Below, one piece after another: positions 1,533-45,430 of a DNA stretch of 64,000 nt (its first letter is position 1; each line of letters starts with the position of its first letter). Position numbers and translations under genes: made by a program. Source of the DNA: Bacillota bacterium (GTDB taxonomy: Bacteria > Bacillota > Dethiobacteria > DTU022 > PWGO01). The notes beneath the pieces are model-generated. The model made no database searches, was not told the origin of the DNA, and saw only the letters and a list, made by a program, of their open reading frames with translations. Location: the NCBI GenBank assembly GCA_012518215.1, contig JAAYSV010000008.1:166452-230451 (forward strand), read 5' to 3'.

Positions 1533-2381
1533 TCAAGCCGAAGCTTCGGGAACTCCTTTGAGCACCGCGTAACTGAATACCGGTCCATCCTTGCAAACAT
1601 AGAGGGGGCCCGCATTGCAACGGCCACATTTGCCTATGCCACACTTCATCCTGTTTTCAAGAGTCGTATAGATCTGCTCATCGGCAAAACCCAATTTTTT
1701 CAGATTCTCGATAACAAAACGAATCATGATCGGCGGACCGCAGGTGATGGCAATGGTGTTCTCCGGAGAGGGAGCCACCTCCATCAGCAAGTTGGGAACA
1801 AATCCGACATAATGAGGCCATCCTTCTTCTTCCACGTCCACCGACAGGTGGCAACAGATTCCATCCTGTTTGGCCAGGTTTTCAAACTCGGATTTGAAAC
1901 AGAGGTCGCCCGACGTTCGTGATCCGTAAATCGTGGTCAACCCCTCGTAATCACCGATATTGGCCTTCACATGCTCTACTATGGGGCGTAACGGCGCCTG
2001 GCCGATACCCCCTCCGATAGTGACAATATTTTTACCTTTCCAGTCCTCGACCGGAAAACTATTACCGTATGGTCCCCTGACCATCATCTTGTCACCCGGC
2101 TCCAATTGATGAAGTGCCCGGGTAACTTTGCCCATGCGCATCACTGAAAACCGCAGAAATTTCCCTTCCGTGGGCGAACAGGATATCGATATCATGCTCT
2201 CTCCCACACCAAGGACTCCGATCATTGCACACTGCCCCGGCCGATGTTCCCAACTATCTTTTATCTTCTCATCATCGAAGACCACTTTCAGGGTTTTTAT
2301 GCAACGATCACCGTACGTCTCGTGCCAGGCTTCCTCAACGGTAGCAATATGGGGTATATAAGGATTAGCGTTGTTTTTCAT
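1533..2381 (-). CDS. FlxA-like NAD(P)H:flavin oxidoreductase subunit (PyrK / sulfhydrogenase-gamma-like; FAD + NAD(P)-binding + C-terminal 2Fe-2S)
   Basis: ORF 1533..2609 trimmed to ATG 2381 (SD AAAGGAGGCG, spacer 5 nt). FAD motif RFSVMRM, NAD(P) motif GGGIGQAPLRP and C-terminal CGIGKCGRCN cluster motif are present. The ATG overlaps the upstream stop as ATGA. Confidence 0.8.
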   Translation of the reverse strand: MKNNANPYIPHIATVEEAWHETYGDRCIKTLKVVFDDEKIKDSWEHRPGQCAMIGVLGVGESMISISCSPTEGKFLRFSVMRMGKVTRALHQLEPGDKMMVRGPYGNSFPVEDWKGKNIVTIGGGIGQAPLRPIVEHVKANIGDYEGLTTIYGSRTSGDLCFKSEFENLAKQDGICCHLSVDVEEEGWPHYVGFVPNLLMEVAPSPENTIAITCGPPIMIRFVIENLKKLGFADEQIYTTLENRMKCGIGKCGRCNAGPLYVCKDGPVFSYAVLKGVPEASA

Positions 2382-3415
2382 AGCGCCTCCTTTACCTTTG
2401 AAAGAATGTCCAGTATATCTATATTGGCCGGGCAGTACTCTATACACCGGCCACATCCAACACAGGCTGTTTTCCCGAACTTGCTTACGTAGTAGTAATA
2501 CTTGTGATTGATCCGGTTGCGCGTTCGTTCGCGGGTCGTCGGGCGTGGATTGTGACCGGATGTATGAAGGGTATATTCTGCAAACATGCAGGAATCCCAC
2601 ATCCGGCAACGGCGGCCTTCTTCCATTTCCACTTCATCCTGGATGTCGAAGCAGTGACAGGTTGGACAGAGGAAAGTGCAAGTTCCACAGCTGATACAAG
2701 CGTTGGAAATGTCCTTCCACAATTGGTCCTCCCACAATTCCGGCAACCCCTCGGCAATGCCTTCGATTTCAATGGAGCGTCCTATCTTCTCCTCCGCCGC
2801 CCTGGTCAGAGCATCTGCAGCGCTCCTGTCTTCGGCGGTTGCATCGCTCAGCAAATCACCGTTCGAACCGAGGATTTCCTTGCCCTTTTCCGAAATTTCC
2901 CGGAGCAAATACCGATCGCCGAGGTCTACCATCAGAACATCCAGCCCCTCGGTCGAGGCCGGGCCACCCCCCACGGATGTGCAGAAACAGTTCACGCAGG
3001 GTTCGTTGCAGGCCAACCCGATCAGCAATGTCTGGTTTCTTTTATCCTGATAGTACCCATCATCGTAATCCCAGGAAAAGAGGCTGTCCACGATGGACAT
3101 GGCCCGGGCATCACATGGGCGGATTCCCAGTACCACCATTTCCTGTACCCCTTCGGGGACAGTTACTTCCTGCTGGCCCAGCTCGAAACTGAACATCGTC
3201 TCTGTTTGCGGAAAGACCACGCTTTTGGGAGGTACCGTGGTGTTGTGCCTCTTTGCTCCTTCGAAGGGAGGCGCCAATGTTGGTTGTGCTTCCCCTTCAG
3301 CATAGGGAACAAACTTCACTGCATCCTCGCTGTCAACCAGCCACACCTTCCTGGAGGAAGCCATCTTCTCCACAAATTCAGACCACTTATCTTTTTTCAA
3401 AATCTTATCAGACAT
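2378..3415 (-). CDS. FlxB-like Fe-S subunit (AsrA / sulfhydrogenase-beta-like, multiple 4Fe-4S motifs)
   Basis: ORF 2378..3421. The preferred start is ATG 3415 with SD AGGTGG 7 nt upstream. Cys motifs present: CNEPCVNCFC, CISCGTCTFLCPTCHC and CVGCGRCIEYCP. Confidence 0.7.
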   Translation of the reverse strand: MSDKILKKDKWSEFVEKMASSRKVWLVDSEDAVKFVPYAEGEAQPTLAPPFEGAKRHNTTVPPKSVVFPQTETMFSFELGQQEVTVPEGVQEMVVLGIRPCDARAMSIVDSLFSWDYDDGYYQDKRNQTLLIGLACNEPCVNCFCTSVGGGPASTEGLDVLMVDLGDRYLLREISEKGKEILGSNGDLLSDATAEDRSAADALTRAAEEKIGRSIEIEGIAEGLPELWEDQLWKDISNACISCGTCTFLCPTCHCFDIQDEVEMEEGRRCRMWDSCMFAEYTLHTSGHNPRPTTRERTRNRINHKYYYYVSKFGKTACVGCGRCIEYCPANIDILDILSKVKEAL

Positions 3416-3427
3416 ATTCACCCACCT

Positions 3428-4411
3428 CTAGAGAACAAAGTCTTCCTGATCATCAGGATGAAAACTGGCCTGAAACGGCTTTCCTTCCACATCCAACCCT
3501 GGTTCATAATCAAATTGGTTCCGCACTTCCTGAGCCAGTTTACGGTTAAGTTTACCCAGCGGCAATCCGGCGGGGCAAACTCTTTCACATTCGCCGCAAT
3601 CCACACAGCGGCCGACCAGATGAAAGGCACGGGCCAGATTGAAAATGGTGTTTTCACTGTAATTTGCCGCCCGGTTGATCCACGTCGGATTCAACCGATC
3701 AAGGACACAATCCTCGCAGTAACACATCGGACACACGTTGCGGCAAGAGTAACAGCGGATACAGCGGGAAAATTCTTTTTCCCAGTATGCCCACCGCTCT
3801 TCAAGAGACATATCTTCGATCTCTTTTACTTCCGGCGACTCCCCGTTACCGCCTGGTTGCACCTCGCTACCAAGACTGATATCGGCTATTACCGGATTTG
3901 GATGCCGGCATATCAGGCAGTTGTCCGCCAACACCTCTTCCCGTGCCACCTCTTTCTCCCCATCAGGGAATTTGAATACGATCTTGTCATCTTTCCATGC
4001 CGCCTCGACAGAATCCAGAGTTTCAGGATACTTTTCTCGTACTTTTTTTAAATCAACGACGCCCCGGCAGGGGCATCCGATTACAACCACCCGCTCCCTT
4101 TCTATCCCTTTTTCCACCAGCAATTGGACCACAGCGCGGCTGTCGCACCCTTTGACCAGCAATGCAACCTTTCGCTCATCTGGCTGCTGGCCGCGCGGGA
4201 CCGGCAACTTTTCGGCATAAGTGAGATAGCTGGCCAGGTTTGATACACACAACGGAGAAAAAATCAGTTTTTCCGTTTCTTCGGGCTTTTCAATAACACA
4301 GGGTGAAACCCGGTAACCGAAAGTCCCCTTCTGCCAGCCTAGCAAATGCTTCACATCGTCGCGTGAAACCACTTCTGCAGCGGTACTGCGAAGTTTTTCC
4401 AGATCTACCAA
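3428..4411 (-). CDS. FlxC-like Fe-S subunit (FrhB / HydB-like, two 4Fe-4S ferredoxin motifs)
   Basis: ORF 3428..4459 (TTG). I prefer TTG at 4409-4411 because a strong SD GGGGGGAGGAG ends 4 nt upstream and it lies 14 nt after the MvhD stop. Motifs present: CIRCYSCRNVCPMC and CVDCGECERVCP. Confidence 0.65.
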   Translation of the reverse strand: MVDLEKLRSTAAEVVSRDDVKHLLGWQKGTFGYRVSPCVIEKPEETEKLIFSPLCVSNLASYLTYAEKLPVPRGQQPDERKVALLVKGCDSRAVVQLLVEKGIERERVVVIGCPCRGVVDLKKVREKYPETLDSVEAAWKDDKIVFKFPDGEKEVAREEVLADNCLICRHPNPVIADISLGSEVQPGGNGESPEVKEIEDMSLEERWAYWEKEFSRCIRCYSCRNVCPMCYCEDCVLDRLNPTWINRAANYSENTIFNLARAFHLVGRCVDCGECERVCPAGLPLGKLNRKLAQEVRNQFDYEPGLDVEGKPFQASFHPDDQEDFVL

Positions 4412-4424
4412 GCGCTCCTCCCCC

Positions 4425-4856
4425 CTACCAATTGATCTTGTTACGTCGAAACTGTTCAAATGGTCCCAGTTCGCGAGTATCTTCTACAATTTTTTCCACG
4501 ACTTCCTTCCATTTGGTGGGCTCCGAAGCAGAAACCCAGCTCATCTGGAAACGACGGGGGTCGATACCCACAAACTCCATCATCTCTTTTAACAGTCCCA
4601 TCCTGCGGCGGGCATACATATTGCCCTCCATGTAGTGACAGTCACCCGGGTGGCATCCGGAAACAAGCACGCCGTCAGCCCCCTGCTGAAGCGCATTCAG
4701 GACAAAGAGCGGGTTGACCCTTCCCGAGCACATCACACGTATTACCTTGATATTGCAAGGATACTTCACCCGGCTGGTCCCAGCAAGATCAGCCCCGGCA
4801 TAGGAACACCAGTTGCACAGAAAAGCAACTATGTTTGGTTCAAAATTCTCCGTCAT
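4425..4856 (-). CDS. mvhD: MvhD / FlxD (methyl-viologen-reducing hydrogenase delta-subunit family, 2Fe-2S electron-transfer protein)
   Basis: ORF 4425..4958 trimmed to ATG 4856 (MTENFEPNIVAFLCNWCSYAGADLAG...GADGVLVSGCHPGDCHY). SD GGAG is present. The ATG overlaps the hdrA stop as ATGA. Confidence 0.85.
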   Translation of the reverse strand: MTENFEPNIVAFLCNWCSYAGADLAGTSRVKYPCNIKVIRVMCSGRVNPLFVLNALQQGADGVLVSGCHPGDCHYMEGNMYARRRMGLLKEMMEFVGIDPRRFQMSWVSASEPTKWKEVVEKIVEDTRELGPFEQFRRNKINW

Positions 4857-6850
4857 TCTCCAACCCCCAATGCAGCAATTTGCGGTAATATCTGGCAATC
4901 CATAAACGACCGCGACTGGATTGATCCAGACAGACATCCGGCCACACAGGCGCCGCATCCCTTGCAGAGTGCCTCGTTGACCCTGGCCACGTTGACCGTA
5001 CGGCCCATGCGATTGATTTCAACCAACTCGATGGCCGTGTAAGGGCATATCTCTACACAGAATGCACAACCGCGGCAGGTGCTCTCATCCACGCAGCTTA
5101 CCTGCGCTTCAACCTTCACCTTGCCGGAAGAAAGGGGAATCAGTGCCGAGGCAGCAGCCCCCTTGGCCTGGGCCACCGTGTCCGGTATGTCCTTGGGAGC
5201 CTGGCAACAGCCGGCCAGGAAAACCCCGTCCGAGGATGTATCCACCGGGCGCAGTTTGGGGTGCGCCTCCATGAGGAACCTGTCCGCGGATTGAGACAAC
5301 CTCAACAGATCGATCATCTCCCGTGTATCTTTCCGCGGCTCGAGCCCCACCGAGAGAACGACCAGATCCACCTCATCCTCGAGAGGCGTTGCTGTAAGCG
5401 TGTCCTCCACCTTGATGACCATCTTCTCCCCGCGCCGGAAGATCTCCGATGGATTCCCCCGGATGTACCTGACCCCTTCACGGCGAACCCGGTCATAGAA
5501 CTCCTCGAAACCTTTTCCGAAGGCCCGGACATCCATGTAATAAACCCTTACCCTGGCATCGGGAATCTTCTCTTTTACCAGGTGAGCCTGTTTGGCCGTG
5601 TACATGCAACATACCCTTGAACAGTACTCGTTGCCGACACTTGTATCCCGCGATCCCACACACTGGATGAAGGCAATATCCTTGGGTTCCCTGGCATCTT
5701 CACCTTCGCCGATCAGGATATTACCACCGGTCGGCCCCGAAGCCGACACCAGGCGCTCCATCTCCAACCCGGTGATCACGTTGGCATTCCCCGTGTAGGC
5801 AAACTCCGGCTTGCGGGCAGCATCGAATACATCAAATCCGGTGGCCACGATGATCGCACCGACCTTGAATTCCACAATCTCGTCCGTCTGCTCGAAATTG
5901 ATCGCTTCCGCACGGCAGACCTCCACACATTTGGGCCCCTTGCCGCATTTACCCCTGGTCAGAAACAGGCAGCGTTCGGGATCGATGGTGTAGACGGCCG
6001 GCACCGCCTGCGGAAACGGCAGATAGATTGCCGAACGTTTTCCCAGTCCCTCGTTGAACTCATCGGGAATACGATTGGCGATGCGACAGCTTGTAGCACA
6101 GTCGCCGCATCCGGTACACTTGCTGAACTCCACATAACGGGCTTTTTTTCTGACTTTAACATCAAAATTCCCCACAAAACCGCCGATTTCCTCAACTTCC
6201 GCGTAAGTCATCAGCTCGATGTTCGGGTGGCTGGCCACATCGACCATCTTGGGGGTAAGGATACAGGCCGAGCAGTCCAATGTAGGAAAGGTCTTGTCCA
6301 GCTGGGCCATGCGCCCCCCCACCGAGGGTGTCTTCTCGACAAGATAGACCTTGAAGCCCGCATCAGCAATATCCAGTGCCGCCTGGATACCGGCCACCCC
6401 TGCACCGATGACCAGCGCAGCCGGTTCGGCATCGACGAATTTTTCCTCCAGGGGTTCGAGCATCCGCGCCTTGGCCACTGCCGAGGCCACAAGTCTTTTA
6501 GCTTTCTGTGTAGCTTTCTCCCGATCGGAATGGACCCAGGAACAATGTTCCCGTATGTTGGCCATTTCCAGATAGAAAGGATTGAGGCCCGCTTCCTTGA
6601 GTGTCTTCCGGAAAGTGAGTTCGTGCATACGCGGAGAACAGGAAGCCACCACCACCCTGTTTATACCAGATTTGCTGATATCCTCGCGGATCAGCAACTG
6701 CCCGGGATCGGAGCACATGTAGGCATAATTTTTGGCGATGACGACGCCGGGAAGCGTCGCCGCAAAATTGGTTACTTCCTCAACATCGACGGTTGCTGAA
6801 ATATTTATCCCACAATGACAAACATAAACACCCAATTTTGGTTTTTCCAT
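4853..6850 (-). CDS. hdrA: Heterodisulfide reductase subunit A-like flavoprotein (FAD, N-terminal CxCGxN cluster, inserted and C-terminal 4Fe-4S ferredoxin domains)
   Basis: 665-aa protein with the following motifs: GVYVCHCGINIS; GAGVAGIQAALDIADAG; CTGCGDCATSC...CVEVC; CRGCAFCVEICP...CKGCGACVAGC. SD GGGAGGA. Confidence 0.9.
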   Translation of the reverse strand: MEKPKLGVYVCHCGINISATVDVEEVTNFAATLPGVVIAKNYAYMCSDPGQLLIREDISKSGINRVVVASCSPRMHELTFRKTLKEAGLNPFYLEMANIREHCSWVHSDREKATQKAKRLVASAVAKARMLEPLEEKFVDAEPAALVIGAGVAGIQAALDIADAGFKVYLVEKTPSVGGRMAQLDKTFPTLDCSACILTPKMVDVASHPNIELMTYAEVEEIGGFVGNFDVKVRKKARYVEFSKCTGCGDCATSCRIANRIPDEFNEGLGKRSAIYLPFPQAVPAVYTIDPERCLFLTRGKCGKGPKCVEVCRAEAINFEQTDEIVEFKVGAIIVATGFDVFDAARKPEFAYTGNANVITGLEMERLVSASGPTGGNILIGEGEDAREPKDIAFIQCVGSRDTSVGNEYCSRVCCMYTAKQAHLVKEKIPDARVRVYYMDVRAFGKGFEEFYDRVRREGVRYIRGNPSEIFRRGEKMVIKVEDTLTATPLEDEVDLVVLSVGLEPRKDTREMIDLLRLSQSADRFLMEAHPKLRPVDTSSDGVFLAGCCQAPKDIPDTVAQAKGAAASALIPLSSGKVKVEAQVSCVDESTCRGCAFCVEICPYTAIELVEINRMGRTVNVARVNEALCKGCGACVAGCLSGSIQSRSFMDCQILPQIAALGVGE

Positions 6851-6909
6851 CTCGAATTTTCATCCTCCCACGCAGATTAGCTTTTGATAGTGCTGAACCA
6901 GCTTGGGGG

Positions 6910-7887
6910 CTAAGCACCTTTCATTTCTTTGATTTTTTCGGCCAGTTTTGGAACCACCTTGAACAGATCATCAACAATGGCGTAATCCGCCTCTGCAAAA
7001 ATCGGCGCATTGGGATCCTTGTTGATAGCCACGATGGTTTTGGCTCCTTTGATTCCGGCCAGATGCTGGAAGGCACCCGAGATTCCCACTGCAATGTAGA
7101 GCTTCGGCTTCACCGTTTTACCCGATGTCCCCACCTGGCGATCATGAGGTATCCAGCCCGCGTCGGTCGCCGCACGGGAGCCGCAGATATCTGCCCCGAT
7201 GCTTTCTGCCAGCTCTTCCATCAGGGGCAAATTCTTGTCTTCACGCACACCACGGCCGATCCCTACCAGCAATTCCGACTGGGTGATATCAACGTCGCCC
7301 ACTTCAGCTTCCACATACTCGACAAACGTGCGGTAATCAAGATCCTCTTTCAAAGGGGAATCGATTTTCTCAACACTTCCCTTTTTGGAAGGCTCGATCG
7401 CTTCAAAAGCGGATTCGCGGATGGTAAACAGATAGGTCTCCGCATCCTTGAAAGAAAATTCTCCGTTTACTTTCCCCTGATAATACTGACGCTCGGCAAT
7501 CGGTTTGCCTTCTTCAATTTTCAAAGCCACCAGATCGGTAAGAAAGGGAAGCCCCTTCTCCACAGCCAGCGCGGGTGCAAAATCCACGCCCTGAGCGGTA
7601 TGCCCGACCATCACGATAAAAGGCTTGTATTCATCAATCAGGGCTGAAACGATTTTCTGGTATTTATCACCGTTGAAATCTGCCAGCAGGGCATCATCGA
7701 TACAGAGGACCCTGTCACATGCCCCGGCCAGTTCGGAAGCAAAATCATCCACACCGTGACCCAGCAGCACGGCCACAACTTCTCCCTGGGCATCTGCAGC
7801 GACCTGGGATGCCAGATTCAGCATCTCCCAGGAGATATCACGCAATGCCCCCTGCCTGTGCTCCGCCAGTACAAATACATCACCCAT
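6910..7887 (-). CDS. etfA: Electron transfer flavoprotein alpha subunit
   Basis: 325 aa with an FAD-binding C-domain ([28 protein letters not shown]). SD AAGGAGG. It follows etfB after a 1-nt gap. Confidence 0.9.
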
Positions 7888-7888
7888 C

Positions 7889-8677
7889 TTATAAATGACC
7901 TCCTTTTACGAGAATGGAAGCAAGTTTTTCCGCCTTTTCTTCCGGTTCACCCTCGATAAACTCCGCTGTCGAAACAACTTCCGGAATGTAAAGCTTGTTC
8001 AGAACGATCAACGAAGCAGACTCGTTCACCTGATCGGCAGGCATGGACAGATCGTCAAGATTCATTACCTTGAGTTCTTTTTTCTGCGCCTGTCTGATTC
8101 CCCTGATCGGGGCATAGCGGGGTTCGTTGATACCCGTCTGTATGGTCAGGACGGCCGGAAGGGCCACTTCCACAACCTCCATCAGCCCACCTTCAAGCTC
8201 CCTGCTTGCTTTTACCTTGCCATCAAGGACTTCAACATTTTTGACCATCGCCGCATGTGCCACACCCAGTTCTTCTGCCAGGGCCACCCCCACGGCCATC
8301 TGACCGTCATCGTTGGCCATGCAACCGGTGAGAACCAGGTCAAATTCTTGCCCCTTGATCGCTCCGGCAAGGACCTTGGCTATACAGATGGGGTCAAAGC
8401 TATTGATCCGGGGATCTTCTATGCGAATGGCACGATCCCCGCCCTTGGCAAGGGCCATACGGATCATGACTTCGGATTTCTGTGGCCCGATGGAAACGAC
8501 CGTGACCTCTCCTCCCTTGTCTTCCTTGATCAGCACGGATTCCTCGACCGCATAGTTGTCAGCATCGTTGATATCGAATGAAAATCGGCTGGAATCCACT
8601 GCCTTTCCGGTTTCGTCTAGTTTGATATCGGCTTCCGACGTATCCGGAACATACTTGATACAAACAAAAGTCTTCAC
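7889..8677 (-). CDS. etfB: Electron transfer flavoprotein beta subunit
   Basis: 262 aa starting MKTFVCIKYVPDTS... with a GTG start and SD GGAGGTGGAG. Confidence 0.9.
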   Translation of the reverse strand: MKTFVCIKYVPDTSEADIKLDETGKAVDSSRFSFDINDADNYAVEESVLIKEDKGGEVTVVSIGPQKSEVMIRMALAKGGDRAIRIEDPRINSFDPICIAKVLAGAIKGQEFDLVLTGCMANDDGQMAVGVALAEELGVAHAAMVKNVEVLDGKVKASRELEGGLMEVVEVALPAVLTIQTGINEPRYAPIRGIRQAQKKELKVMNLDDLSMPADQVNESASLIVLNKLYIPEVVSTAEFIEGEPEEKAEKLASILVKGGHL

Positions 8678-8709
8678 AAAACTCCACCTCCAACTTTCTA
8701 GTATTCGAT

Positions 8710-9852
8710 TTACATCACAGTGTCGATAATTTCCATTATTTCCGCTACCCTCATCTCTTCTTCAAGGCCCAATGCCTTGACAGCATCATCCAGAGTGAGT
8801 ACACAGAAAGGACAGGCTACGGCCACCACCTGTGCCCCCAGTTCTTTCGCATCCTTGATCCTTGTTTCCGCCAGGCGTTCCTCTTTCGATTCCGATTCCA
8901 CCCACATCTTCCCTCCGCCACCTTCACAGCAGAGGCTGCGTTCCCGGGAACGTTCAAATTCAACAAGTTCCACACCGGGGATGCTTTTCAGAATCATCCT
9001 CGGTTCATCAAAAATGAGGCTCTGCTTGCCCAGGAAGCATGGATCATGATAAACGATTCTCTCCTTCAACTCGCCCGAAAAACTCAATTGCTCTTTTTCA
9101 ATCAATTCGGCCAGAAGCTGTGTATAATGTATAACCTCGTGTTTCAGGCCTTCCATTTTCTTCAAAGCAGTCAGGCAATGGGGCGATAGGGTTACAATTC
9201 TTCCGGCGGAGAATTCATTGTATTTCTCCACCGTTTCCTCGGCCATCTCCCAGAAGAGTTCTTCCTCCCCCAGGGCTATGATCTCGCTGCCGCAGCAGGA
9301 TTCATCCTCGCCCAGAAAGGCATAGTCCACACCCGCTTTGTTGAGCAGCTTGACCATGTTTCTGGCTGTCGCCTGTACACGAGGATCGTAGGCAATCGTG
9401 CAGCAGACGAAAAAGAGATTTTCCACCTCCTGATCGGGATCGGCCAGTTTCACGTCCAGCCCATCCATCCAATCGTAACGGAGAGCCTTGGCCTTGTTCC
9501 AGGGGTTTCCTTCCAGGTATGTGCTTTCCAGAGCATCCCTGACAGTCGGCTGAACCTTCCCACTCTCTACCAGAAGATTGCGCAGGCCGAACAGAACCTC
9601 CACCGGTTTCAACCCCTTCGGGCATCTTACCGCGCAGGTATGACATCCGGTACAGTCCCATACTTCGACAAGGTGGGCAAGTTCATCCAGAAGGTCCTCG
9701 TTGTAAGCGTCATATACAAATCGACGTGGATTCAGATTTGTTCTGACTGTAACCGGGCAACCCCCGGTACACTTCCCGCACTGGATACAACCAAGTAAAT
9801 CAAATTTTTCTGTAAAAGAAATGTTTTCAACGCTCATCTTCATACCCCGCAT
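8710..9852 (-). CDS. HdrD/GlcF-like Fe-S oxidoreductase: N-terminal 2x[4Fe-4S] plus two CCG cysteine-rich domains (HdrC+HdrB-like fusion)
   Basis: Motifs present: CIQCGKCTGGCP and CTGCHTCAVRCP, then two CCG motifs (DESCCGSE, SLCCEGGGG) and CPFC. It is adjacent to etfBA, as in the ETF-linked Fe-S oxidoreductases of Syntrophomonas-type genomes. No obvious TM helix. The start could be M1, M4 or M6. Confidence 0.8.
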   Translation of the reverse strand: MRGMKMSVENISFTEKFDLLGCIQCGKCTGGCPVTVRTNLNPRRFVYDAYNEDLLDELAHLVEVWDCTGCHTCAVRCPKGLKPVEVLFGLRNLLVESGKVQPTVRDALESTYLEGNPWNKAKALRYDWMDGLDVKLADPDQEVENLFFVCCTIAYDPRVQATARNMVKLLNKAGVDYAFLGEDESCCGSEIIALGEEELFWEMAEETVEKYNEFSAGRIVTLSPHCLTALKKMEGLKHEVIHYTQLLAELIEKEQLSFSGELKERIVYHDPCFLGKQSLIFDEPRMILKSIPGVELVEFERSRERSLCCEGGGGKMWVESESKEERLAETRIKDAKELGAQVVAVACPFCVLTLDDAVKALGLEEEMRVAEIMEIIDTVM

Positions 9853-11501: not shown

Positions 11502-13415
11502 TCAAAGTTTCCAGGGTACACGATAATCCCCCACCCTTTTCGTGTACTTCTTCTGGTCAAAATGTTCCAGCAATGCTTGCATGTATTTCCGCGAACTCTG
11601 CAGGCAGTCACGAAATTGAGCCATCGTAAGCCGATCATGTTGGCGAAAATGATCCCGCAACATCTCCAGTGCCTCTTCATACAGATCCTGGAGCAGATAC
11701 ATATCTTCACTTATTTTGATTATCCAACCGCGATCGCTCATGTATTCCAGCAGAGATTCGAGGTCAGCAATCTTCCGGTCAGTGGAAGCCGCTATTTCTC
11801 TTGCCGGAGGAGGCTGGAACCGTGCTTCGCTCAGAATCGACTTGATCTTGCTGATGAAAATCTCCTCGCCGGGTGTCAGTTCAGGTACAAAACCGGCTCT
11901 GCAAACCTTCTCTCCCTGACAGCTCACCACCCCTTTGGCCTCCAGATTGTCCAGGAAAGCATCGTATTCCCTGATGGAGAGTTCTGCCGGAATTACGCCC
12001 CTCAACTGCGCCCGCGGAACCCCGGCCAGAAGAGGATGCTTGCGATGATAGTCATCCAGAAAAGCAGTTACCTCCTCTTCCCATTTTTCCAGCGTTTCCG
12101 CCGTTATATAACTGCCCCCCAGATCCATGATCTTTCCCTCATCCTTCAGTTCCCCGATAAGTGATTCCAGCTTCTCCTTTCCCAACCGGGCCATCGTTTC
12201 AAGCCGTGAAAAATCGGCCACTTTCAACTGGCTTATCTTCTGGACCACGTATGATCTGTCCGTTCCGGAAGTCAGAATCTCTCTCTCCAGTTCCCGGAGG
12301 GTTTTTATGATTGTGCGGCGGGCGCGGCGCGGCCTCCTTTCCGAGAAAGGGTCGAGGACCATCCCCCCACCAATCGTCACCACCGGCGAATAGGAGCGGA
12401 TGATGAAACGGTCCTTCCTGTCGGCGACCAGCGGCGACTCCAACCTGAGCTGGACAAGCCCCCTTTCCCCGGGCCGCAGGATCTCTTTATCCAGAATAGC
12501 CATACGCGCCACCACCCGGGACGTGCCAAGATAAAGATGCAGGGGGTCCAGGTTCTTCACGTCCCTGGTAACTCTATTCAATATCGTCACGGAGGCATCG
12601 AGCATCGATGTCCGCCTGAAATAACCCGGGGAACAGATCACGCTTCCCCGTTCCAGTTCACTCTTTTCCACCCCCGAAAGATTTATGGCCACCCTGTGTC
12701 CGGCAAAAGCTTCCTTGACACCGTGATTGAAAACCTCGATGTTGCGCACGCGCGCTTTCTCCCCCGCGGGCAACACTTCCACGATATCACCGATGCCCAC
12801 GCGCCCCTGGATGAGCGTGCCCGTCACTATCGTGCCAAACCCGGATATGATGAAGGAACGGTCAACGGGAAGCCGCATCGGTGCATTCAGGTCGCGGGGT
12901 GCGACCATCCTTGTAAGCCGATCAAGCATCGCCCGCAATTCCTCTATCCCGGATCCGGTTACCGCCGAAACCCGGCAGAAAGGGGCTTCCTGCAGGAAAG
13001 TACCCCGAAGTTCTCCTCGCACCTCTTCCTCCACCATGTCCAACCATTCTTCATCGACAAGGTCGATTTTGGTCAGCACGACCAGTCCTTTTTCCAGTCC
13101 CAGCAATTGCAGAATGTTGAGGTGTTCGCGGGTCTGGGCCATAACTCCCTCGGAGGCATCGATCACCAGCAGTACAAGATCTATGCCCGCGGTACCCGCC
13201 AGCATATTGTTGATAAATCTTTCGTGGCCCGGAACATCTATTATTCCCGCTACCCGGCCTCCGGACAAAGAAAAAGAAGCAAAACCCAGATCGATGGAGA
13301 TGCCCCTTTCCTTTTCTTCCTTGAGCCGATCCGTGTCCACCCCGGTAATCGCACTGATCAGCGCCGTCTTGCCATGGTCAACATGGCCGGCCGTACCGAT
13401 TATCACCGCATCCAA
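11502..13415 (-). CDS. selB: Selenocysteine-specific translation elongation factor SelB
   Basis: MDAVIIGTAGHVDHGKTALI... with GTPase G1-G4 motifs and a long winged-helix C-terminus. TTG start with SD GGAGTG 7 nt upstream. It lies 14 nt upstream of selD. Confidence 0.9.
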   Translation of the reverse strand: MDAVIIGTAGHVDHGKTALISAITGVDTDRLKEEKERGISIDLGFASFSLSGGRVAGIIDVPGHERFINNMLAGTAGIDLVLLVIDASEGVMAQTREHLNILQLLGLEKGLVVLTKIDLVDEEWLDMVEEEVRGELRGTFLQEAPFCRVSAVTGSGIEELRAMLDRLTRMVAPRDLNAPMRLPVDRSFIISGFGTIVTGTLIQGRVGIGDIVEVLPAGEKARVRNIEVFNHGVKEAFAGHRVAINLSGVEKSELERGSVICSPGYFRRTSMLDASVTILNRVTRDVKNLDPLHLYLGTSRVVARMAILDKEILRPGERGLVQLRLESPLVADRKDRFIIRSYSPVVTIGGGMVLDPFSERRPRRARRTIIKTLRELEREILTSGTDRSYVVQKISQLKVADFSRLETMARLGKEKLESLIGELKDEGKIMDLGGSYITAETLEKWEEEVTAFLDDYHRKHPLLAGVPRAQLRGVIPAELSIREYDAFLDNLEAKGVVSCQGEKVCRAGFVPELTPGEEIFISKIKSILSEARFQPPPAREIAASTDRKIADLESLLEYMSDRGWIIKISEDMYLLQDLYEEALEMLRDHFRQHDRLTMAQFRDCLQSSRKYMQALLEHFDQKKYTKRVGDYRVPWKL

Positions 13416-13452
13416 TTCTTATCACTCCGCACCATAGAGATTGTTTTTTGAT

Positions 13453-14871
13453 CTATTCCCCGGGATTTACCGCCTTCATCATCACGGTAACAATTTCTTC
13501 CTCCTGTCCGGGCAAAACGGTCCGCAAATCCAGAAGCAAATGTTCCTGGTGGACCCTCGCTATCAGGGGGGGGTCTCCCCACCGCAATCTTTTCATCAAC
13601 TCCTCCGCCGAAATGTCCCCGGATCGGTAGGAGATCAGATACGTGGGCAATTCTGCCAGGGGCATGGCTCCACCCCCCACACAGGAGGTCCCTTTCATTA
13701 TCTGCCAATCCCCTGCCTTGACCTGCTGTTTCAAACGGCGCAGCAAACGGTCAGCCCTCGCCTTCAGGTCACGGGTATCAGCGGTCAACATCCCCAGAAC
13801 GGGAATTTCACATCGGGCCTTCTCGTGGTCATGATAGAGGCGTAAAGTCGCCTCCATGGCCGCGATGGTTAGTTTATCAACGCGCAATGCCCTTGACAGC
13901 TGGTTATCACGCAACCGCCGGATCAGGTCCCTGTCCCCTACAATTATCCCTGCCTGCGGTCCGCCAAGGATCTTGTCCCCGCTGAATGAGACTGCCCCGA
14001 CACCCTCTTCGAGGCATTCTTGCACGGTGGGTTCCGGAGGCAACCCGTATTCGGTGAGATCATAAAAAGCCCCACTGCCCAGATCTTCCACCACCGGCAA
14101 GCCAACCTGCCGACCCAGGGAAACCAGTTCTTTCCGGGAAACCTCCTCCGTAAAACCAATGATACGATAATTGCTTGTATGTACCTTCAGGAGCAATGCA
14201 GTCCGATCAGAAATGGCTCTTTCATAATCATGCCGGTAACATTTGTTCGTAGTTCCCACTTCCACCAGCGTTGCCCCGCTGGCTTTCATGACATCGGGAA
14301 CACGGAACCCTCCCCCTATCTCGACCAGTTGCCCGCGGGAAACGATAACTTCCCTATCCCTGGCCAAAGTATTGAGAAGAAGCAATACCGCCGCGGCATT
14401 GTTGTTGACAATCAGGGAAGCTTCCGCCCCGGTCAAGGTGCATACCAGCCCCTCCACGTGGGCCAGCCGTGAATCCCTCCGGCCACTTTCCAGCGAAAGT
14501 TCAAGATTGGAATACTGCCCCGCCGTGGATGTAACTGCGTGGATAGCCTGTTCGGCCAGCGGCGCCCGCCCCAGATTGGTATGCAATATAACCCCTGTTG
14601 CATTGATCACATGGCGCAGCCCGGAAAAAAACCGCAGCCTTGCCCTTTCCGCGGCTTCGGCAGCAATCACGGCGGGGTCGATGGCCAGGTTTTCAAGTTC
14701 CTCGCCGGAGGAAGAAGCGATGATTTTCTCTCTGAAATGATCTATGCTCTCGCGTGAAACTTCGAGCAGGAGACCGTGGGGAATCCGATTCGCGATTTTT
14801 TGCAGGGGCTCTTCCTGCAAGATACGGTCCACCGCCGGCAAGGCCCTGAGAAAAGAGTTTTTAACGTCCAT
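13453..14871 (-). CDS. selA: L-seryl-tRNA(Sec) selenium transferase
   Basis: ORF 13453..14901 trimmed to ATG 14871 (SD AGAGGTG, spacer 5). The sequence MDVKNSFLRALPAVDRILQEEPL... is a typical SelA N-terminus. Confidence 0.9.
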   Translation of the reverse strand: MDVKNSFLRALPAVDRILQEEPLQKIANRIPHGLLLEVSRESIDHFREKIIASSSGEELENLAIDPAVIAAEAAERARLRFFSGLRHVINATGVILHTNLGRAPLAEQAIHAVTSTAGQYSNLELSLESGRRDSRLAHVEGLVCTLTGAEASLIVNNNAAAVLLLLNTLARDREVIVSRGQLVEIGGGFRVPDVMKASGATLVEVGTTNKCYRHDYERAISDRTALLLKVHTSNYRIIGFTEEVSRKELVSLGRQVGLPVVEDLGSGAFYDLTEYGLPPEPTVQECLEEGVGAVSFSGDKILGGPQAGIIVGDRDLIRRLRDNQLSRALRVDKLTIAAMEATLRLYHDHEKARCEIPVLGMLTADTRDLKARADRLLRRLKQQVKAGDWQIMKGTSCVGGGAMPLAELPTYLISYRSGDISAEELMKRLRWGDPPLIARVHQEHLLLDLRTVLPGQEEEIVTVMMKAVNPGE

Positions 14872-14905
14872 CCCGACACCTCTGACATATGATTTGATCA
14901 TTTAC

Positions 14906-22114: not shown

Positions 22115-22210
22115 TGGCGGGAGTAGATGGGAATCGAACCCACCGTGGACGGATCGCGCCCACCACTGGATTTGAAGTCCAGGAGCGTCACCAGACCGCC
22201 AACTACCCCC
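22115..22210 (-). tRNA. selC: tRNA-Sec (anticodon UCA), 96 nt
   Basis: Minus strand: GGGGGTAGTTGGCGGTCTGGTGACGCTCCTGGACTTCAAATCCAGTGGTGGGCGCGATCCGTCCACGGTGGGTTCGATTCCCATCTACTCCCGCCA. It has an 8-bp acceptor stem, an anticodon loop CTTCAAA identical to E. coli selC, a long variable arm, and encoded CCA. Confidence 0.9.
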
Positions 22211-38780: not shown

Positions 38781-38855
38781 TGGTGGGCGATGTAGGATTT
38801 GAACCTACGACCCCCTGCTTGTAAGGCAGGTGCTCCCCCGCTGAGCTAATCGCCC
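38781..38855 (-). tRNA. tRNA-Val (anticodon TAC)
   Basis: GGGCGATTAGCTCAGCGGGGGAGCACCTGCCTTACAAGCAGGGGGTCGTAGGTTCAAATCCTACATCGCCCACCA. Confidence 0.9.
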
Positions 38856-38859
38856 GGAT

Positions 38860-38935
38860 TGGTGACCCCTAGGGGATTTGAACCCCTGCTGCCAGCTTGA
38901 AAGGCTGGTGTCCTAACCGATTAGACCAAGGGGCC
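38860..38935 (-). tRNA. tRNA-Glu (anticodon TTC)
   Basis: GGCCCCTTGGTCTAATCGGTTAGGACACCAGCCTTTCAAGCTGGCAGCAGGGGTTCAAATCCCCTAGGGGTCACCA. Confidence 0.9.
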
Positions 38936-38964
38936 GGCCATATCAACATTATTGTACAAATAGG

Positions 38965-39040
38965 TGGTGGGCCCACCAGGGCTCGAACCTGGGACCGACC
39001 GGTTATGAGCCGGCTGCTCTTCCGGCTGAGCTATGGGCCC
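38965..39040 (-). tRNA. tRNA with CAT anticodon (elongator Met or lysidine-modified Ile2; not initiator)
   Basis: GGGCCCATAGCTCAGCCGGAAGAGCAGCCGGCTCATAACCGGTCGGTCCCAGGTTCGAGCCCTGGTGGGCCCACCA. The anticodon loop CTCATAAC resembles Bacillus tRNA-Ile(LAU). It lacks the initiator 3xGC anticodon-stem signature. Confidence 0.8.
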
Positions 39041-39044
39041 ACAA

Positions 39045-39120
39045 TGGCACCCCAGGCAGGATTCGAACCTGCAACCTATCGGTTAACAGCCGATTGCTCT
39101 ACCGTTGAGCTACTGAGGTA
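39045..39120 (-). tRNA. tRNA-Asn (anticodon GTT)
   Basis: ACCTCAGTAGCTCAACGGTAGAGCAATCGGCTGTTAACCGATAGGTTGCAGGTTCGAATCCTGCCTGGGGTGCCA. The 5' end is +/-1 nt. Confidence 0.85.
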
Positions 39121-42220: not shown

Positions 42221-42556
42221 ACCTTCTTCGATTCAAACTTGCCATCACCGCATAAAAAAACCTCACTAACAGGAGGCGAGGTTGCAGGGTACCATGCTTT
42301 TACGGCATCAAAATTTTATGCCGCTCCCCCCTCCTCCGCAACAACATCCTCTGCTCGACATAAAAATCTATTTACAGACATTCTCTTTCTCTCCACGCTT
42401 TTGTAATAAAATTTATCGTGTATTATATTCTCTATTTCTTTACCATATCCTTCTTTTTTTTGATCTTTTGCTGGATGAAACATGACGGGAAATTTACGGG
42501 TATTTGTTGGATGGCATGATAATACTTTTTGTTAATATCTATTTTGGATTGTCAAA

Positions 42557-42586
42557 AATAATACCCGGTAATTACCGGGTATTATT
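42557..42586. terminator. 30-bp perfect palindrome AATAATACCCGGTAA|TTACCGGGTATTATT: terminator-like hairpin and possible protein-binding dyad
   Basis: Exact 15-bp inverted repeat with no spacer, flanked by T-runs on both strands, 34 nt after the stop of the 42620..44710 gene and upstream of the dnaG promoter region. Confidence 0.6.
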
Positions 42587-42619
42587 ACAAAATCATTATC
42601 TTTTTTCACGAACGGATCA

Positions 42620-44710
42620 TCATTTTTCCCCGGCCGCCGGGGCAAAAGCCTCCTCGGTTTCCTTGATTATATCCCTTACAGCCTGCTCAAAATTCCCAAC
42701 CCCCGCCTGGGAAAGAGTTGCAAATACCACTCTCTCCGGTGCAATGCCGATTTCACCCAGCACCTTCCTGGCCCTCTGCACCCGGCGTTCTCCCCAGAAG
42801 AAAGTATCACGGAAGGGGCAATCTCCATTATCCTCATCCTCGCATCCAACCACAACTACCCGCTCTGCCCCCGCTTCAAAAGCTTTCAATATGTGCAAAC
42901 TGTCAACCTTGGACACACAGGGGAAACGCACCACTCCCAGTTCGGTCTCCCTGTCCAGAATATATTTTTTCGTGAATTCAGGATCCGCATAGGCACCGTA
43001 CGCGCAACTGAAAACAACCACGGCCTCCTTGCCATCTTTCCCCCGGGAAACGGATTCAATCCGGGAAGCAGCCTGTTCGATATAATCGGAACGGAATTCA
43101 ATGGCTACAGCCGGGCAGATACCCATGCACAGGCCACAGGCCTGGCATTGTTCCTTGCGGATATTGATAACTCCCTCCTCATCAATTACAGGAACACCGT
43201 AGGGGCAGACCCTCAAACAAGTCAAGCAATTCACACACAATTCCTCGATGCGGCTGGCCCCAGCCAGGCATCCCAGGCATCGTTTAGCTTCCGTGAGAGC
43301 CTGCTGTCGGCTGAAGCAGCTTTCTACATGTTCGAAGTTGGAAACTCTGACTGCCGGATCGATCAGGACCATTTCCTGGCGTTCGCTTCTTTTCACTTCC
43401 CCGGCCACTTTCTCGTCCAGTTTCTCGGCTGGTTCCGGTTCCTCGACGGAATCGATCGTGAACGGTTGGCCCTCGAGATAGGCCATGATCGAAAGTGCGG
43501 CCCGACGGCCCGAAGCCATCGATTCCACCGCCGTTCCCGGGCCCGTTGCTACCTCCCCGCAGGCAAACACCCCTTCCTGGGAAGTGACAAAATTGTTGCG
43601 ATCATAAATCAGATTTCCCCTGGCATCGAGCTCGACCTCACCTTTCAGGGTATCCAGATCGGATCCCTGTCCCACGGCAAAAATGATGATGTCTCCTTCC
43701 AGATCGCCGGTACATTCTTCATTGTACTCCGGATTGAAACGGCCCTGGTCATCAAACACACACACACATTCTTTTATTTTGAGCCCTTTTATGTTATCTC
43801 CATCTTCCAGCACGGAAACCGGGCCGTTGGAACAGACAATTTCCACTCCTTCATCCCTGGCTTCCTCGATTTCCCATTCAAAGGCCGGCATTTCATCCTC
43901 GGCTTCCAGGCAGACGGCCTTGACTTTTTTGGCACCACAGCGTACCGCGGAGCGAGCCACATCCATGGCCACGTTGCCACCGCCGATGACGATCACCGTG
44001 GGATTGCCCTCGAACTGGAAACCATCCCGTTTGACCGCTTTCAGGAAAGGCAGCGCCTTCAGAACTTTGGGGTGTTCCACTCCGGGGATGGGAACGGTGC
44101 GGCTTTCCTGCAACCCCAGGGCAAGCAATATGGCCTTGTATCCGTTATTCTTCAATTCAGCGATCGATATATCCTTACCCAGCTCCACGCCATCCTTGAA
44201 TTCGATCCCCGCATCGCGGAATACATCGATATCACGATCGATTTCCTCGTCCGGGAGCCTGTACAACGGAATGTAATGCCTGACGGCTCCCCCCATGAGT
44301 TTTTCCCGATCAAAAACTGTAACCGTGCAACCCTGCATGGCCAGATCCCATGCCGCAACCAGGCCGCTCGGGCCACCGCCAATCACAGCAACTTTTTTCT
44401 CGGGATCGGGCTTGGGCATCTTCTCCAGCATTGCCTTCCCGTTTTCTACAGCAAACCGCTTTAACCCCCGTATGGAAAGAGGTTTATCGACATCATTTCG
44501 ACGACATTCTTCTTCGCAGTGATGAGCGCAGATCGTTCCACATATTGCAGGCAGGGGGTTTGTTTCCCTGATCTTGTCCAGAGCTTCATCAAAATTGCCA
44601 ATAGCTATGGAATAAATATATTCGCGGATACCCTGGTGGATAGGACAGGCCGCCTGACACGGAGGAACCAGAGCCTCATCAGTGGGCAGGTGTTGGGACA
44701 CTAATATCAC
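42620..44710 (-). CDS. Fusion oxidoreductase: GltD/NfnB-like NAD(P)H-binding flavoprotein (N-terminal Fe-S + FAD/NAD(P) Rossmann) - 2x[4Fe-4S] ferredoxin - C-terminal MvhD domain
   Basis: 696 aa. N-terminus: PPCQAACPIHQGIREYI...CGTICAHHCEEECRR; VAVIGGGPSGLVAAWDLA; second Rossmann VIVIGGGNVAMDVARSAVRCGA; CVNCLTCLRVCP and CQACGLCMGICP; C-terminal VVFSCAYGAYAD...RFPCVSKVD...VVVGCEDEDNGDCPF (MvhD signature). GTG start; alternative GTG 9 nt downstream. Confidence 0.8.
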   Translation of the reverse strand: MILVSQHLPTDEALVPPCQAACPIHQGIREYIYSIAIGNFDEALDKIRETNPLPAICGTICAHHCEEECRRNDVDKPLSIRGLKRFAVENGKAMLEKMPKPDPEKKVAVIGGGPSGLVAAWDLAMQGCTVTVFDREKLMGGAVRHYIPLYRLPDEEIDRDIDVFRDAGIEFKDGVELGKDISIAELKNNGYKAILLALGLQESRTVPIPGVEHPKVLKALPFLKAVKRDGFQFEGNPTVIVIGGGNVAMDVARSAVRCGAKKVKAVCLEAEDEMPAFEWEIEEARDEGVEIVCSNGPVSVLEDGDNIKGLKIKECVCVFDDQGRFNPEYNEECTGDLEGDIIIFAVGQGSDLDTLKGEVELDARGNLIYDRNNFVTSQEGVFACGEVATGPGTAVESMASGRRAALSIMAYLEGQPFTIDSVEEPEPAEKLDEKVAGEVKRSERQEMVLIDPAVRVSNFEHVESCFSRQQALTEAKRCLGCLAGASRIEELCVNCLTCLRVCPYGVPVIDEEGVINIRKEQCQACGLCMGICPAVAIEFRSDYIEQAASRIESVSRGKDGKEAVVVFSCAYGAYADPEFTKKYILDRETELGVVRFPCVSKVDSLHILKAFEAGAERVVVVGCEDEDNGDCPFRDTFFWGERRVQRARKVLGEIGIAPERVVFATLSQAGVGNFEQAVRDIIKETEEAFAPAAGEK

Positions 44711-44818
44711 TCCTTCTTCATATTTATGAACAATAATCTAATTATTCTATGCAACTGATGAATATTCCTGCAAATTATAAATATTTTTGACAAAATAGAG
44801 GAAATTCTCATTTTTGAA

Positions 44819-45430
44819 TCAGCAGATAAATTTCCCCTGGCGCAAAGAAGCCGTTGCCGTGGTCACCTGAACGATGCGCCGGGCCAGAACCAGGGCCCTT
44901 CCCAGAGCGGTACCATCTTCGGAAGACGGTTGTTGGGAACATACTCCATGATGGCCGGCATCGTTGTCAATATAACCATCGCCAACGATGATCATACCTT
45001 GCACGAGCATCATGTCAAACAACGCCTTCAAGGTGGTCTCCTGTCCGCCAAAACGCGCCCCGCCCGATGAAATTGCCCCACCGACCACGTTGATAAGCGC
45101 TTTCTCGGTACGTAACCGGCGTGATTTATCCCAGAAACATTTCAACTGGGAGGAAACCGTGCCAAAGTACACGGGGCTTCCCAGAATCAAAGCATCGGCC
45201 TTTCTCAGCTGATCGTAGGCTTGCGCCAGTGCGGAATCGCGGTAACATTTCCCCTCGCAGGGAGAAGAGCAAGCCCGGCAATACGGGAATTTCTGCTCCT
45301 TGATGATTTCCTGTATATAAAGAAGTTTTGTTTCACAGCCGTTCTCTTTTGCTTCATGGAGAACAGCCTCCAGAAGATGGGCGGTGTTACCATGGCGGTG
45401 TGGGCTGCCGTTGAGTGCCAGTATGTACAT
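44819..45430 (-). CDS. Iron-sulfur flavoprotein (Isf-like NADPH-dependent FMN reductase fold with compact Cys cluster)
   Basis: MYILALNGSPHRHGNTAHLL... is flavodoxin-like. Compact cluster motif CRACSSPCEGKC. SD GAAGGGGAGAG. Confidence 0.75.
   Translation of the reverse strand: MYILALNGSPHRHGNTAHLLEAVLHEAKENGCETKLLYIQEIIKEQKFPYCRACSSPCEGKCYRDSALAQAYDQLRKADALILGSPVYFGTVSSQLKCFWDKSRRLRTEKALINVVGGAISSGGARFGGQETTLKALFDMMLVQGMIIVGDGYIDNDAGHHGVCSQQPSSEDGTALGRALVLARRIVQVTTATASLRQGKFIC

Follow-up and report, generated by a model that had tools for sequence, protein, structure and literature searches.

MvhD is usually seen as an adaptor between hydrogenase and HdrA, and the question raised by the locus described here is what such a domain does when it is fused to a GltD-type flavin module and encoded next to an Isf-like iron-sulfur flavoprotein. 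The locus lies in a stretch of 64,000 nucleotides of contig JAAYSV010000008.1 from a Bacillota bacterium (the window, meaning the whole of the DNA that was analyzed), and comprises the gene for a GltD-ferredoxin-MvhD fusion protein, the Isf-like gene directly upstream of it, and a 30-bp palindrome behind it. Judged by its sequence, the fusion protein is a flavin module of the GltD/StnC type joined to a cassette made up of MvhD plus its HdrA landing pad. We read it, with about even confidence, as a soluble flavo-iron-sulfur (Fe-S), nicotinamide-dependent module for electron input (or output), whose likely local partner would be the Isf-like protein. Elsewhere in the same protein family the dominant partner appears to be MetVF, a methylene-tetrahydrofolate (methylene-THF) reductase, a partnership that the original prediction for this locus, made from the sequence alone, had missed.

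The fusion gene and its domains are arranged as follows:

42620..44701, minus strand: fusion gene, 693 residues from GTG 44701 (open reading frame (ORF), Pfam and NCBIfam)
44435..44665, minus strand: Fer4_20 domain, residues 16-92 (PF14691, 70.9 bits)
43508..44398, minus strand: Rossmann domains for flavin adenine dinucleotide (FAD) and NAD(P)H (Pyr_redox_2), residues 105-401 (PF07992, 96 bits)
43100..43279, minus strand: RCLGC motif (C478, C481) and ferredoxin domain for two [4Fe-4S] clusters (Pfam Fer4_10/Fer4_7)
42653..43021, minus strand: MvhD/FlpD domain, residues 564-686 (PF02662, 77.6 bits against a cut-off of 22.3, E 1.1e-21)

All four domains exceed their Pfam gathering scores, so that the composition first proposed for this protein, a GltD/NfnB-like part followed by ferredoxin motifs and MvhD, is borne out by domain annotation (Fer4_20, Pyr_redox_2, dicluster and, at the C-terminus, FlpD) as well as by alignment with solved structures. 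The Cys motifs of the Fer4_20 domain, PPC18QAAC22P and C57x3C61x3C65x3C69, align with the same motifs of the StnC-type chains 8oh5_C and 9bov_A. The Rossmann motifs are GGGPSG for FAD and GGGNVA for the nicotinamide. The 4Fe-4S dicluster domain spans residues 488-537 according to Pfam (Fer4_10 match 488-533, 29.9 bits), carries C492/495/498/502 and C522/525/528/532, and can be aligned with the ferredoxin domain at the C-terminal end of HdrA (8rvv_A residues 578-640, 5odc_A). In the MvhD domain, which matches 9sfi_K (3e-13), 9sw2_D and 5odc_D in the PDB, four invariant Cys (C569, C598, C623 and C631) align with Cys of the MvhD chains 9sw2_D and 9sfi_K. Across 19 homologs of 51-84% identity, the Fe-S Cys are invariant at C18, C22, C61, C65, C69, C478 and C481, at all eight positions of the ferredoxin domain and at all four of the MvhD domain, and C57 is kept in at least 90% of these proteins. 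Further motifs of the fusion protein are CVNCLTCLRVCP, CQACGLCMGICP, SCAYGAYAD and GCEDEDNGDCPF.

As listed, the ORF runs from GTG 44710 (42620..44710, minus strand, 696 residues). The true start is most likely the second GTG, at 44701, because orthologs have the N-termini MSHHLP or MTHHLP and a conserved AGGAGTGAT Shine-Dalgarno sequence precedes that codon; the protein would then have 693 residues and the gap to the Isf-like gene would be 117 bp. Fusion orthologs that are 52-84% identical have in common an initiation region of the form AGGAGTGAT-N5/6-(T/G)TG (window 44690-44720, minus strand, and its equivalents in L001-L107, L numbers being our labels for the loci compared), and thereby keep both a strong Shine-Dalgarno sequence and a non-ATG start.

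The best solved matches to the fusion protein are the StnC-type chains 8oh5_C and 9bov_A together with 9n5u_A, which was deposited as 'NfnA' (E 6.5e-90 to 2.3e-78). Over their whole length, residues 15-535 can be aligned with the GltD-like NADPH module of 8oh5_C and 9bov_A (residues 12-532 stand against 101-626 of the StnC-type chains), and 9n5u_A matches strongly over residues 15-416 and weakly beyond. The fusion and the StnC-type chains agree in how their Cys motifs are split, with PPCxxACP and CxxxCxxxC ahead of the flavin domain and RCLxC behind it, and both also have the two Rossmann motifs and, further on, a ferredoxin-like dicluster. StnC-type chains run on into a NuoG/molybdopterin-like domain and act in NuoE/NuoF-containing complexes, whereas the fusion runs on into MvhD, has no NuoE/NuoF-type neighbors, and carries CLE where the StnC-type NADPH enzymes carry YRR. 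Remoter relatives are the NfnB-type large subunit, GltD and the N-terminal module of dihydropyrimidine dehydrogenase (4ylf_B, 5jca_L, 2vdc_G and 1gt8_A, E 1e-59 to 1e-40), in which Fer4_20 and Pyr_redox_2 are combined as in the fusion but the C-terminal ferredoxin-MvhD extension is lacking; unlike in the NfnB-type system, no gene for an NfnA/PyrK-like partner adjoins the fusion gene.

The C-terminal part has its counterpart in HdrA2, the HdrA-MvhD fusion (type Ia HdrA of methanogens), where a ferredoxin domain and MvhD follow each other in the same order, and fusions of HdrA to MvhD are documented (PMC12054007). The last ~210 residues (486-696) can be aligned first with the ferredoxin domain that ends HdrA, then with MvhD, and the NCBIfam model for HdrA2 (NF040770) covers only residues 488-687, corresponding to positions 575-770 of 777. 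Two existing family names were considered for the whole protein and rejected. As HdrA2 it reaches 126 bits against a cut-off of 1100, has no thioredoxin-reductase-like HdrA core, and carries a flavin module of the GltD type instead. As SfrB, or NADP-dependent formate dehydrogenase beta (PRK12771, NF009410), it reaches 449 bits against 516 and has no adjacent molybdopterin subunit: no molybdopterin oxidoreductase gene was found adjoining the fusion, among the annotated ORFs of the window, or in the orthologous loci examined. This second name had come into question because some homologs bear the JGI name 'formate dehydrogenase (NADP+) beta subunit'.

A clue to the nicotinamide used by the protein lies in the second Rossmann fold. 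By the classical rule, an acidic residue at the end of beta-strand 2 favors NAD, and arginines favor NADP. The fusion has C267-L268-E269 at this place, invariant in the 19 homologs, and the solved NADPH enzymes 8oh5_C, 9bov_A and 9n5u_A have YRR at the matching position of the alignment. NADH is probably the preferred cofactor, since the YRR that binds the 2'-phosphate is replaced by C-L-E. Throughout the GltD-ferredoxin-MvhD family, lineages differ at this one alignment position in having either YRR or CLE, with YRR in one MetVF-linked clade (L108, L110, L112-L116, L119, L121 and L122) and CLE in the clade of the window and in other MetVF-linked clades (L089-L093 and others), an alternation that looks like an NADPH/NADH switch inside a single family.

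From this layout we infer which cofactors are held and in which direction electrons run. NAD(P)H, likelier NADH, would reduce the FAD of the GltD/StnC-type module, from which electrons would pass to [4Fe-4S] clusters bound at the N-terminal Cys motifs and the RCLxC motif, then to the two [4Fe-4S] clusters of the HdrA-type ferredoxin domain, and finally to the [2Fe-2S] cluster in MvhD at the C-terminus. MvhD would thus serve as an adaptor, passing electrons on to an Fe-S/flavin protein other than the fusion itself. At the window locus this would be the Isf-like protein, presumably in direct physical contact, with electrons moving from the [2Fe-2S] cluster of MvhD to the Isf-like [4Fe-4S] cluster, to the Isf-like flavin mononucleotide (FMN), and on to a final acceptor, which would make the fusion an NADH:Isf oxidoreductase. 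To judge by the analogy of Isf and WrbA, the final acceptor here might be O2/H2O2 or a quinone-like compound. The locus is in that case a candidate NADH:Isf oxidoreductase of anaerobic Bacillota, possibly serving in the detoxification of O2 or peroxide.

The upstream gene and the spacer behind it contain the following features:

44819..45430, minus strand: gene for the Isf-like/WrbA-like FMN_red flavoprotein, 203 residues (PF03358, 108 bits)
45245-45280, minus strand: 4-Cys motif C51xxC54xxxC58xxxC62 of the Isf-like protein, from the sequence
44744..44773, minus strand: promoter-like TTGCAG-N18-TAGAAT, read from the sequence, between the Isf-like and fusion genes

The Isf-like flavoprotein with its CxxCxxxCxxxC cluster is therefore found where it had been predicted, 108 bp upstream of the fusion gene if the gap is counted to GTG 44710. 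Isf of Methanosarcina thermophila has a compact 4-Cys motif, CX2CX2CX4-7C, in its N-terminal third, which binds a [4Fe-4S] cluster. The window protein has the FMN_red/flavodoxin-like fold as well, and its N-terminal third carries a putative cluster-binding motif of four closely set Cys with the different spacing CX2CX3CX3C, which is kept in five close orthologs; the FMN_red protein encoded beside the fusion in Natranaerofaba carboxydovora has CX2CX2CX8C. The best solved relatives of the Isf-like protein are WrbA-type quinone reductases (4la4, E 5e-13), and no solved chain named Isf was recovered with it, even by a profile search at E<=1. The name WrbA (NAD(P)H:quinone oxidoreductase type IV) was tried for this protein and discarded, as it scores 79 bits against 141 with NF002999 and 71 against 132.5 with TIGR01755.

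Orthologs of the fusion that are 52-84% identical lie in the same housekeeping region as that of the window, with the gene order glyQS, PPDK, a carboxypeptidase of the PBP5 type on the opposite strand, FMN_red, fusion, dnaG and rpoD. Among the 19 assessable loci of this clade (23 in total), an Isf-like gene stands directly upstream on the same strand in 8, and dnaG follows downstream in 15. In N. carboxydovora the surroundings are entirely different and the FMN_red gene is still directly upstream of the fusion. The two genes are linked, loosely, and the earlier suggestion of a redox module with Isf finds some backing in the gene order of these 8 loci, N. carboxydovora included. The description of the protein as stand-alone applies only in so far as its gene has no neighboring gene for Hdr, molybdopterin or MetVF proteins.

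Several observations weigh against the Isf-like protein as partner, or against details of the scheme. In 11 of the 19 loci no Isf-like gene is found beside the fusion, and in one subclade (e.g. L004) the order is simply PPDK, fusion, dnaG, without an FMN_red gene; since it is missing from so many loci, the Isf-like protein is not an obligatory partner encoded in cis. The FMN_red protein of N. carboxydovora is only 26% identical to that of the window. The spacer between the Isf-like and fusion genes measures 100-250 nt in the clade and contains promoter-like sequence, whereas the junctions between fusion and metV in distant relatives overlap. The GGGNVA of the fusion is a GxGxxA motif, which some authors read as a signature of NADP (PMC7483475; PMC12054007), in conflict with the argument for NADH from CLE. 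AlphaFold2 modeling of the whole fusion from 19 sequences gave a mean predicted local distance difference test score (pLDDT) of 76, with values <50 in the N-terminal Fe-S motifs and in residues 481-535, so that domain geometry and the placement of MvhD in the model are unreliable. Finally, no characterized member of the family and no biochemical data on it were found in the literature.

The promoter-like sequence in the spacer of the window is not listed by the promoter scan, and if real it may allow the fusion gene to be transcribed separately from a promoter of its own. As a separate observation, motifs resembling GGCGAA(T/A)A, GCGAAATATT and GAATATTC recur 40-60 nt before the fusion start (window 44744-44809, minus strand), and are found likewise in L004, L086, L094, L099, L101 and L103-L107, including loci that have no Isf-like gene. 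These recurrent motifs, among which no known box was recognized, may be the fusion gene's own promoter or operator; inspection by eye of the regions upstream of the Isf-like and fusion genes gave no convincing match to Rex- or PerR-type boxes.

The fusion architecture is not rare. A search of 5.8 billion proteins returned 7,483 homologs at E<=1e-10, and the 120 matches listed are all ~690 residues long, full length, 52-93% identical and provided with PF02662. The closest match among those listed, 93% identical, comes from a metagenome-assembled genome of a 'Firmicutes bacterium', and apart from JGI names the listed matches are called only 'FAD-dependent oxidoreductase'; an exact look-up found no record of the window protein itself. 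Searching representatives of 50% clusters yielded about 45 full-length clusters of the same architecture at 36-46% identity, with members from Bacillota, Spirochaetota, Chloroflexota and sediment metagenomes, whose names are generic ('FAD-dependent oxidoreductase', 'hydrogenase iron-sulfur subunit', '4Fe-4S ferredoxin'). When genome contigs were scanned with an alignment of the whole protein, about 6 of the best 80 loci had the MvhD end and most were ordinary GltD/NfnB.

It is in these distant members that MetVF comes into view. The proteins of L089-L093 have the same set of four Pfam domains as the window fusion, and in 4 of these 5 loci (L089, L091, L092 and L093; 40-42% identity) the fusion gene is followed by metV (PF12225, "methylene-tetrahydrofolate reductase C terminal") and metF (PF02219), with stop and start codons that overlap or nearly do so at the fusion-metV-metF junctions. 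The best 80 loci from a metagenome scan with the alignment of the C-terminal ferredoxin-MvhD part were pooled with the other loci, which gives proportions that are indicative only. Where the C-terminal part is <43% identical to that of the window (distant members, 29-42% identity), metV/metF come directly after the fusion in 38 of 45 assessable loci, and also in 11 of 15 distant loci with short flanks; an Isf-like gene was present in 0 of 51 distant loci. A neighbor-joining tree built from 41 full-length proteins shows the window clade as a monophyletic group that arises among MetVF-linked lineages. Together these data point to MetVF as the dominant partner of the GltD-ferredoxin-MvhD family.

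How MetVF-type methylene-THF reductases are supplied with electrons is a standing problem in the bioenergetics of acetogens, where four types of the enzyme are distinguished, among them type III (RnfC2-MetVF) and type IV (HdrCBA-MvhD-MetVF) (PMC8760232). Types III and IV have a separate NADH-oxidizing Fe-S/flavin subunit encoded beside metVF, and the distant members of the fusion family hold exactly that genomic position; in type IV, moreover, MvhD is part of the complex (PMC8760232), as the MvhD domain is of the fusion. A GltD-type NAD(P)H module with fused MvhD is not among the four types described there, and the fusion gene of the window, unlike the type III and IV subunits, is not beside metVF. 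In the distant members the fusion would have MetVF as its partner, in a role like that of RnfC2 in type III and of HdrA/MvhD in type IV. A paper on the fusion or on a GltD-MvhD-MetVF arrangement was not found, a weak negative given that many subscription papers lay beyond the search. The interest of these proteins is thus mainly at the level of the family, as a widespread metVF-linked NAD(P)H subunit that we did not find described in the literature.

Related architectures occur as well. Eight loci (L156 at 1777-6243, and L124, L135, L142, L147, L150, L167 and L170) encode proteins of 1,490-1,600 residues in which a GltD module, an HdrA-like domain for FAD and a ferredoxin domain are joined; an MvhD-like stretch comes after them, and then metV and/or metF in 7 of the 8 (not L170). 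These long proteins are similar to an archaeal form described as 'type III HdrA with inserted GltD' (PMC12054007). In L156 the MvhD-like match runs past the stop codon of the ORF, which may reflect a change of frame, a second ORF or recoding of the stop. In L089 and L169 the MvhD domain of the MetVF-linked members has lost most of its Cys, and the adaptor domain may there be without a cluster.

The family picture gives rise to the alternative that survives best, namely that the fusion of the window serves, in trans, a MetVF encoded elsewhere in the genome as its NAD(P)H-oxidizing subunit, the Isf-like neighbor being incidental. We regard this as unlikely. In its favor are the dominance of MetVF in the family, with its translationally coupled junctions in the 38 of 45 loci, the branching of the window clade within MetVF-linked lineages, and the roughly half of that clade that has no Isf-like gene nearby. 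Furthermore, one clade member, N. carboxydovora, is an acetogen with metF in its acs cluster (PMC8359318), and in acetogens neither MetF nor MetV has its own NADH site (PMC8760232). On the other side, metV and metF are absent from the 64-kb window, where dnaG follows the fusion, and metVF adjoins the fusion in no true member of the window clade; the one hit grouped with the clade, L006, comes from a contig of Dehalococcoidia, and its C-terminal match is truncated. There is no indication of a Wood-Ljungdahl pathway in this organism, and loss of gene adjacency usually accompanies loss of functional coupling. The fusion gene has become separated from metVF in the Bacillota clade of the window. 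The Isf-like protein is a plausible replacement acceptor, because its single chain holds an Fe-S site and FMN, as MetV and MetF do together.

A broader proposal embraces both partners: the family would be a fifth type of nicotinamide-dependent input subunit for MetVF, maybe bifurcating, with NADH and NADPH sublineages, and the window clade would either act in trans or have been re-targeted to an Isf-like acceptor. We offer it tentatively and with little confidence in the whole. Were MetVF served in trans, the missing NAD(P)H route would be filled in organisms where no NAD(P)H-binding subunit is encoded beside MetVF; were the clade re-targeted to the Isf-like acceptor, MvhD would be a portable docking adaptor for different partners. 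The fusion of MvhD to a GltD-type module, placed before MetVF or beside an Isf-like gene, suggests that MvhD is a general plug that wires NAD(P)H to Fe-S/flavin enzymes.

Less probable still is a flavin-based bifurcating enzyme of the Nfn kind, which would send one electron through the N-terminal [4Fe-4S] clusters to ferredoxin and the other through the ferredoxin domain and MvhD to a high-potential partner, Isf-like or MetVF. The flavin module is 40-45% similar to the NfnB-type large subunit (4ylf_B and 5jca_L, deposited under other names), Fe-S Cys flank the flavin domain in the sequence, and methylene-THF is a high-potential acceptor for whose reduction bifurcation has long been proposed (PMC8760232). 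The closest solved relatives of the flavin module, however, are the GltD modules of the StnC type, in which the N-terminal Cys motif and the RCLxC behind the flavin domain appear to form one linear wire and not two branches. In the published Stn structure the GltD-type FAD is reportedly a plain entry for NADPH, with bifurcation taking place elsewhere, and we count this against a bifurcating fusion.

The original prediction had placed another role first, a second NAD(P)H-linked entry or exit for the HdrA complex encoded 36 kb away at 1533-9852, onto which the MvhD domain of the fusion would dock. MvhD does bind HdrA in the solved Hdr-Mvh complexes (5odc, 7bkb), chains of which are among the structure matches, and hdrA is present in the window (4853-6850). 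We nevertheless think this role very improbable, as that cluster has its own mvhD directly after hdrA (4425-4958; FlpD, 184 bits) and its own PyrK/NfnA-like NAD-binding subunit (1533-2609), FrhB-like subunit and EtfAB, the MvhD domain of the fusion is already joined to an HdrA-type ferredoxin domain, its normal contact, hdrA lies near the fusion in none of the orthologous loci examined, and a separation of 36 kb is no evidence of linkage.

Behind the fusion gene, the palindrome AATAATACCCGGTAATTACCGGGTATTATT is exact, measures 30 bp, as had been noted, and lies at 42557-42586, 33 nt past the TGA stop; it occurs as a single copy in the window, where none is expected (100 shuffles). It belongs to the following feature:

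42554..42586, minus strand: intrinsic terminator of the fusion gene, the palindrome leading into UUUUU (RNA fold, centroid -17.4 kcal/mol)

The fold consists of a stem of 13 bp, whose core is CCCGG/CCGGG, closed by a 4-nt loop, and a simple terminator scanner missed it, part of the U-run being inside the stem. When the 130 nt after the stop codon were folded for six orthologous genes (L001, L003, L004, L085, L086 and L088), a strong hairpin was present at the same place in all 6 and a clear U-run followed it in 5, the exception being L004. The hairpin sequences are mutually unrelated, except in the closest ortholog, L001 (84% protein identity), whose arms AATAATACCCGG/CCGGGTATTATT are common with the window and whose loop is longer and different. 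The palindrome is an ordinary intrinsic terminator without special significance, since the position of the hairpin is conserved while its sequence is not, and the presence of a hairpin is in itself unsurprising, as terminators typically take the form of hairpins just behind a stop codon. Of the two functions that had been offered for it, the terminator accords with the fold, the U-run and the hairpins of the orthologous loci, and the regulator dyad has fallen away with the unconserved sequence and the loss of perfect symmetry in L001. A role of the palindrome as operator of a dimeric regulator is hardly credible despite its perfect dyad symmetry and a chance expectation of none, as it stands just past a stop codon, runs into a U-tract, recurs in orthologous loci as hairpins of unrelated sequence, keeps its arms and not its loop in the 84%-identical ortholog, and has no second copy in the window.

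The terminator separates the fusion gene from the leader of dnaG-rpoD. This leader of ~330 nt (window 42221-42553, minus strand; L001 10150-10476) is 83% identical between the window and L001, and contains a block with TATAAT and a hairpin CGGCATAAAA..TGATGCCG; just ahead of the ribosome-binding site of dnaG lies a terminator-like GCCTCC..GTGAGG+U7 (42260-42277). Rfam gave only sub-threshold noise between the terminator and dnaG. The leader could be an attenuator of the operon.

Elsewhere in the window, the cluster at 1533-9852 (minus strand) is an unusual mix of genes for an HdrB/C-like CCG protein, EtfB, EtfA, HdrA, MvhD, an FrhB-like protein, Fer4_22 and the PyrK/NfnA-like NAD-binding subunit. 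Near it, at 15-24 kb, lie genes for an acyl-CoA dehydrogenase, a thiolase and a protein resembling 4-hydroxybutyryl-CoA dehydratase (HpaB family). The window also holds a lysine riboswitch (453-645, 102 bits), selB and selA (11502-14901), tRNA-Sec (22119-22210) and, downstream of rpoD, a block of four tRNAs (38784-39119).

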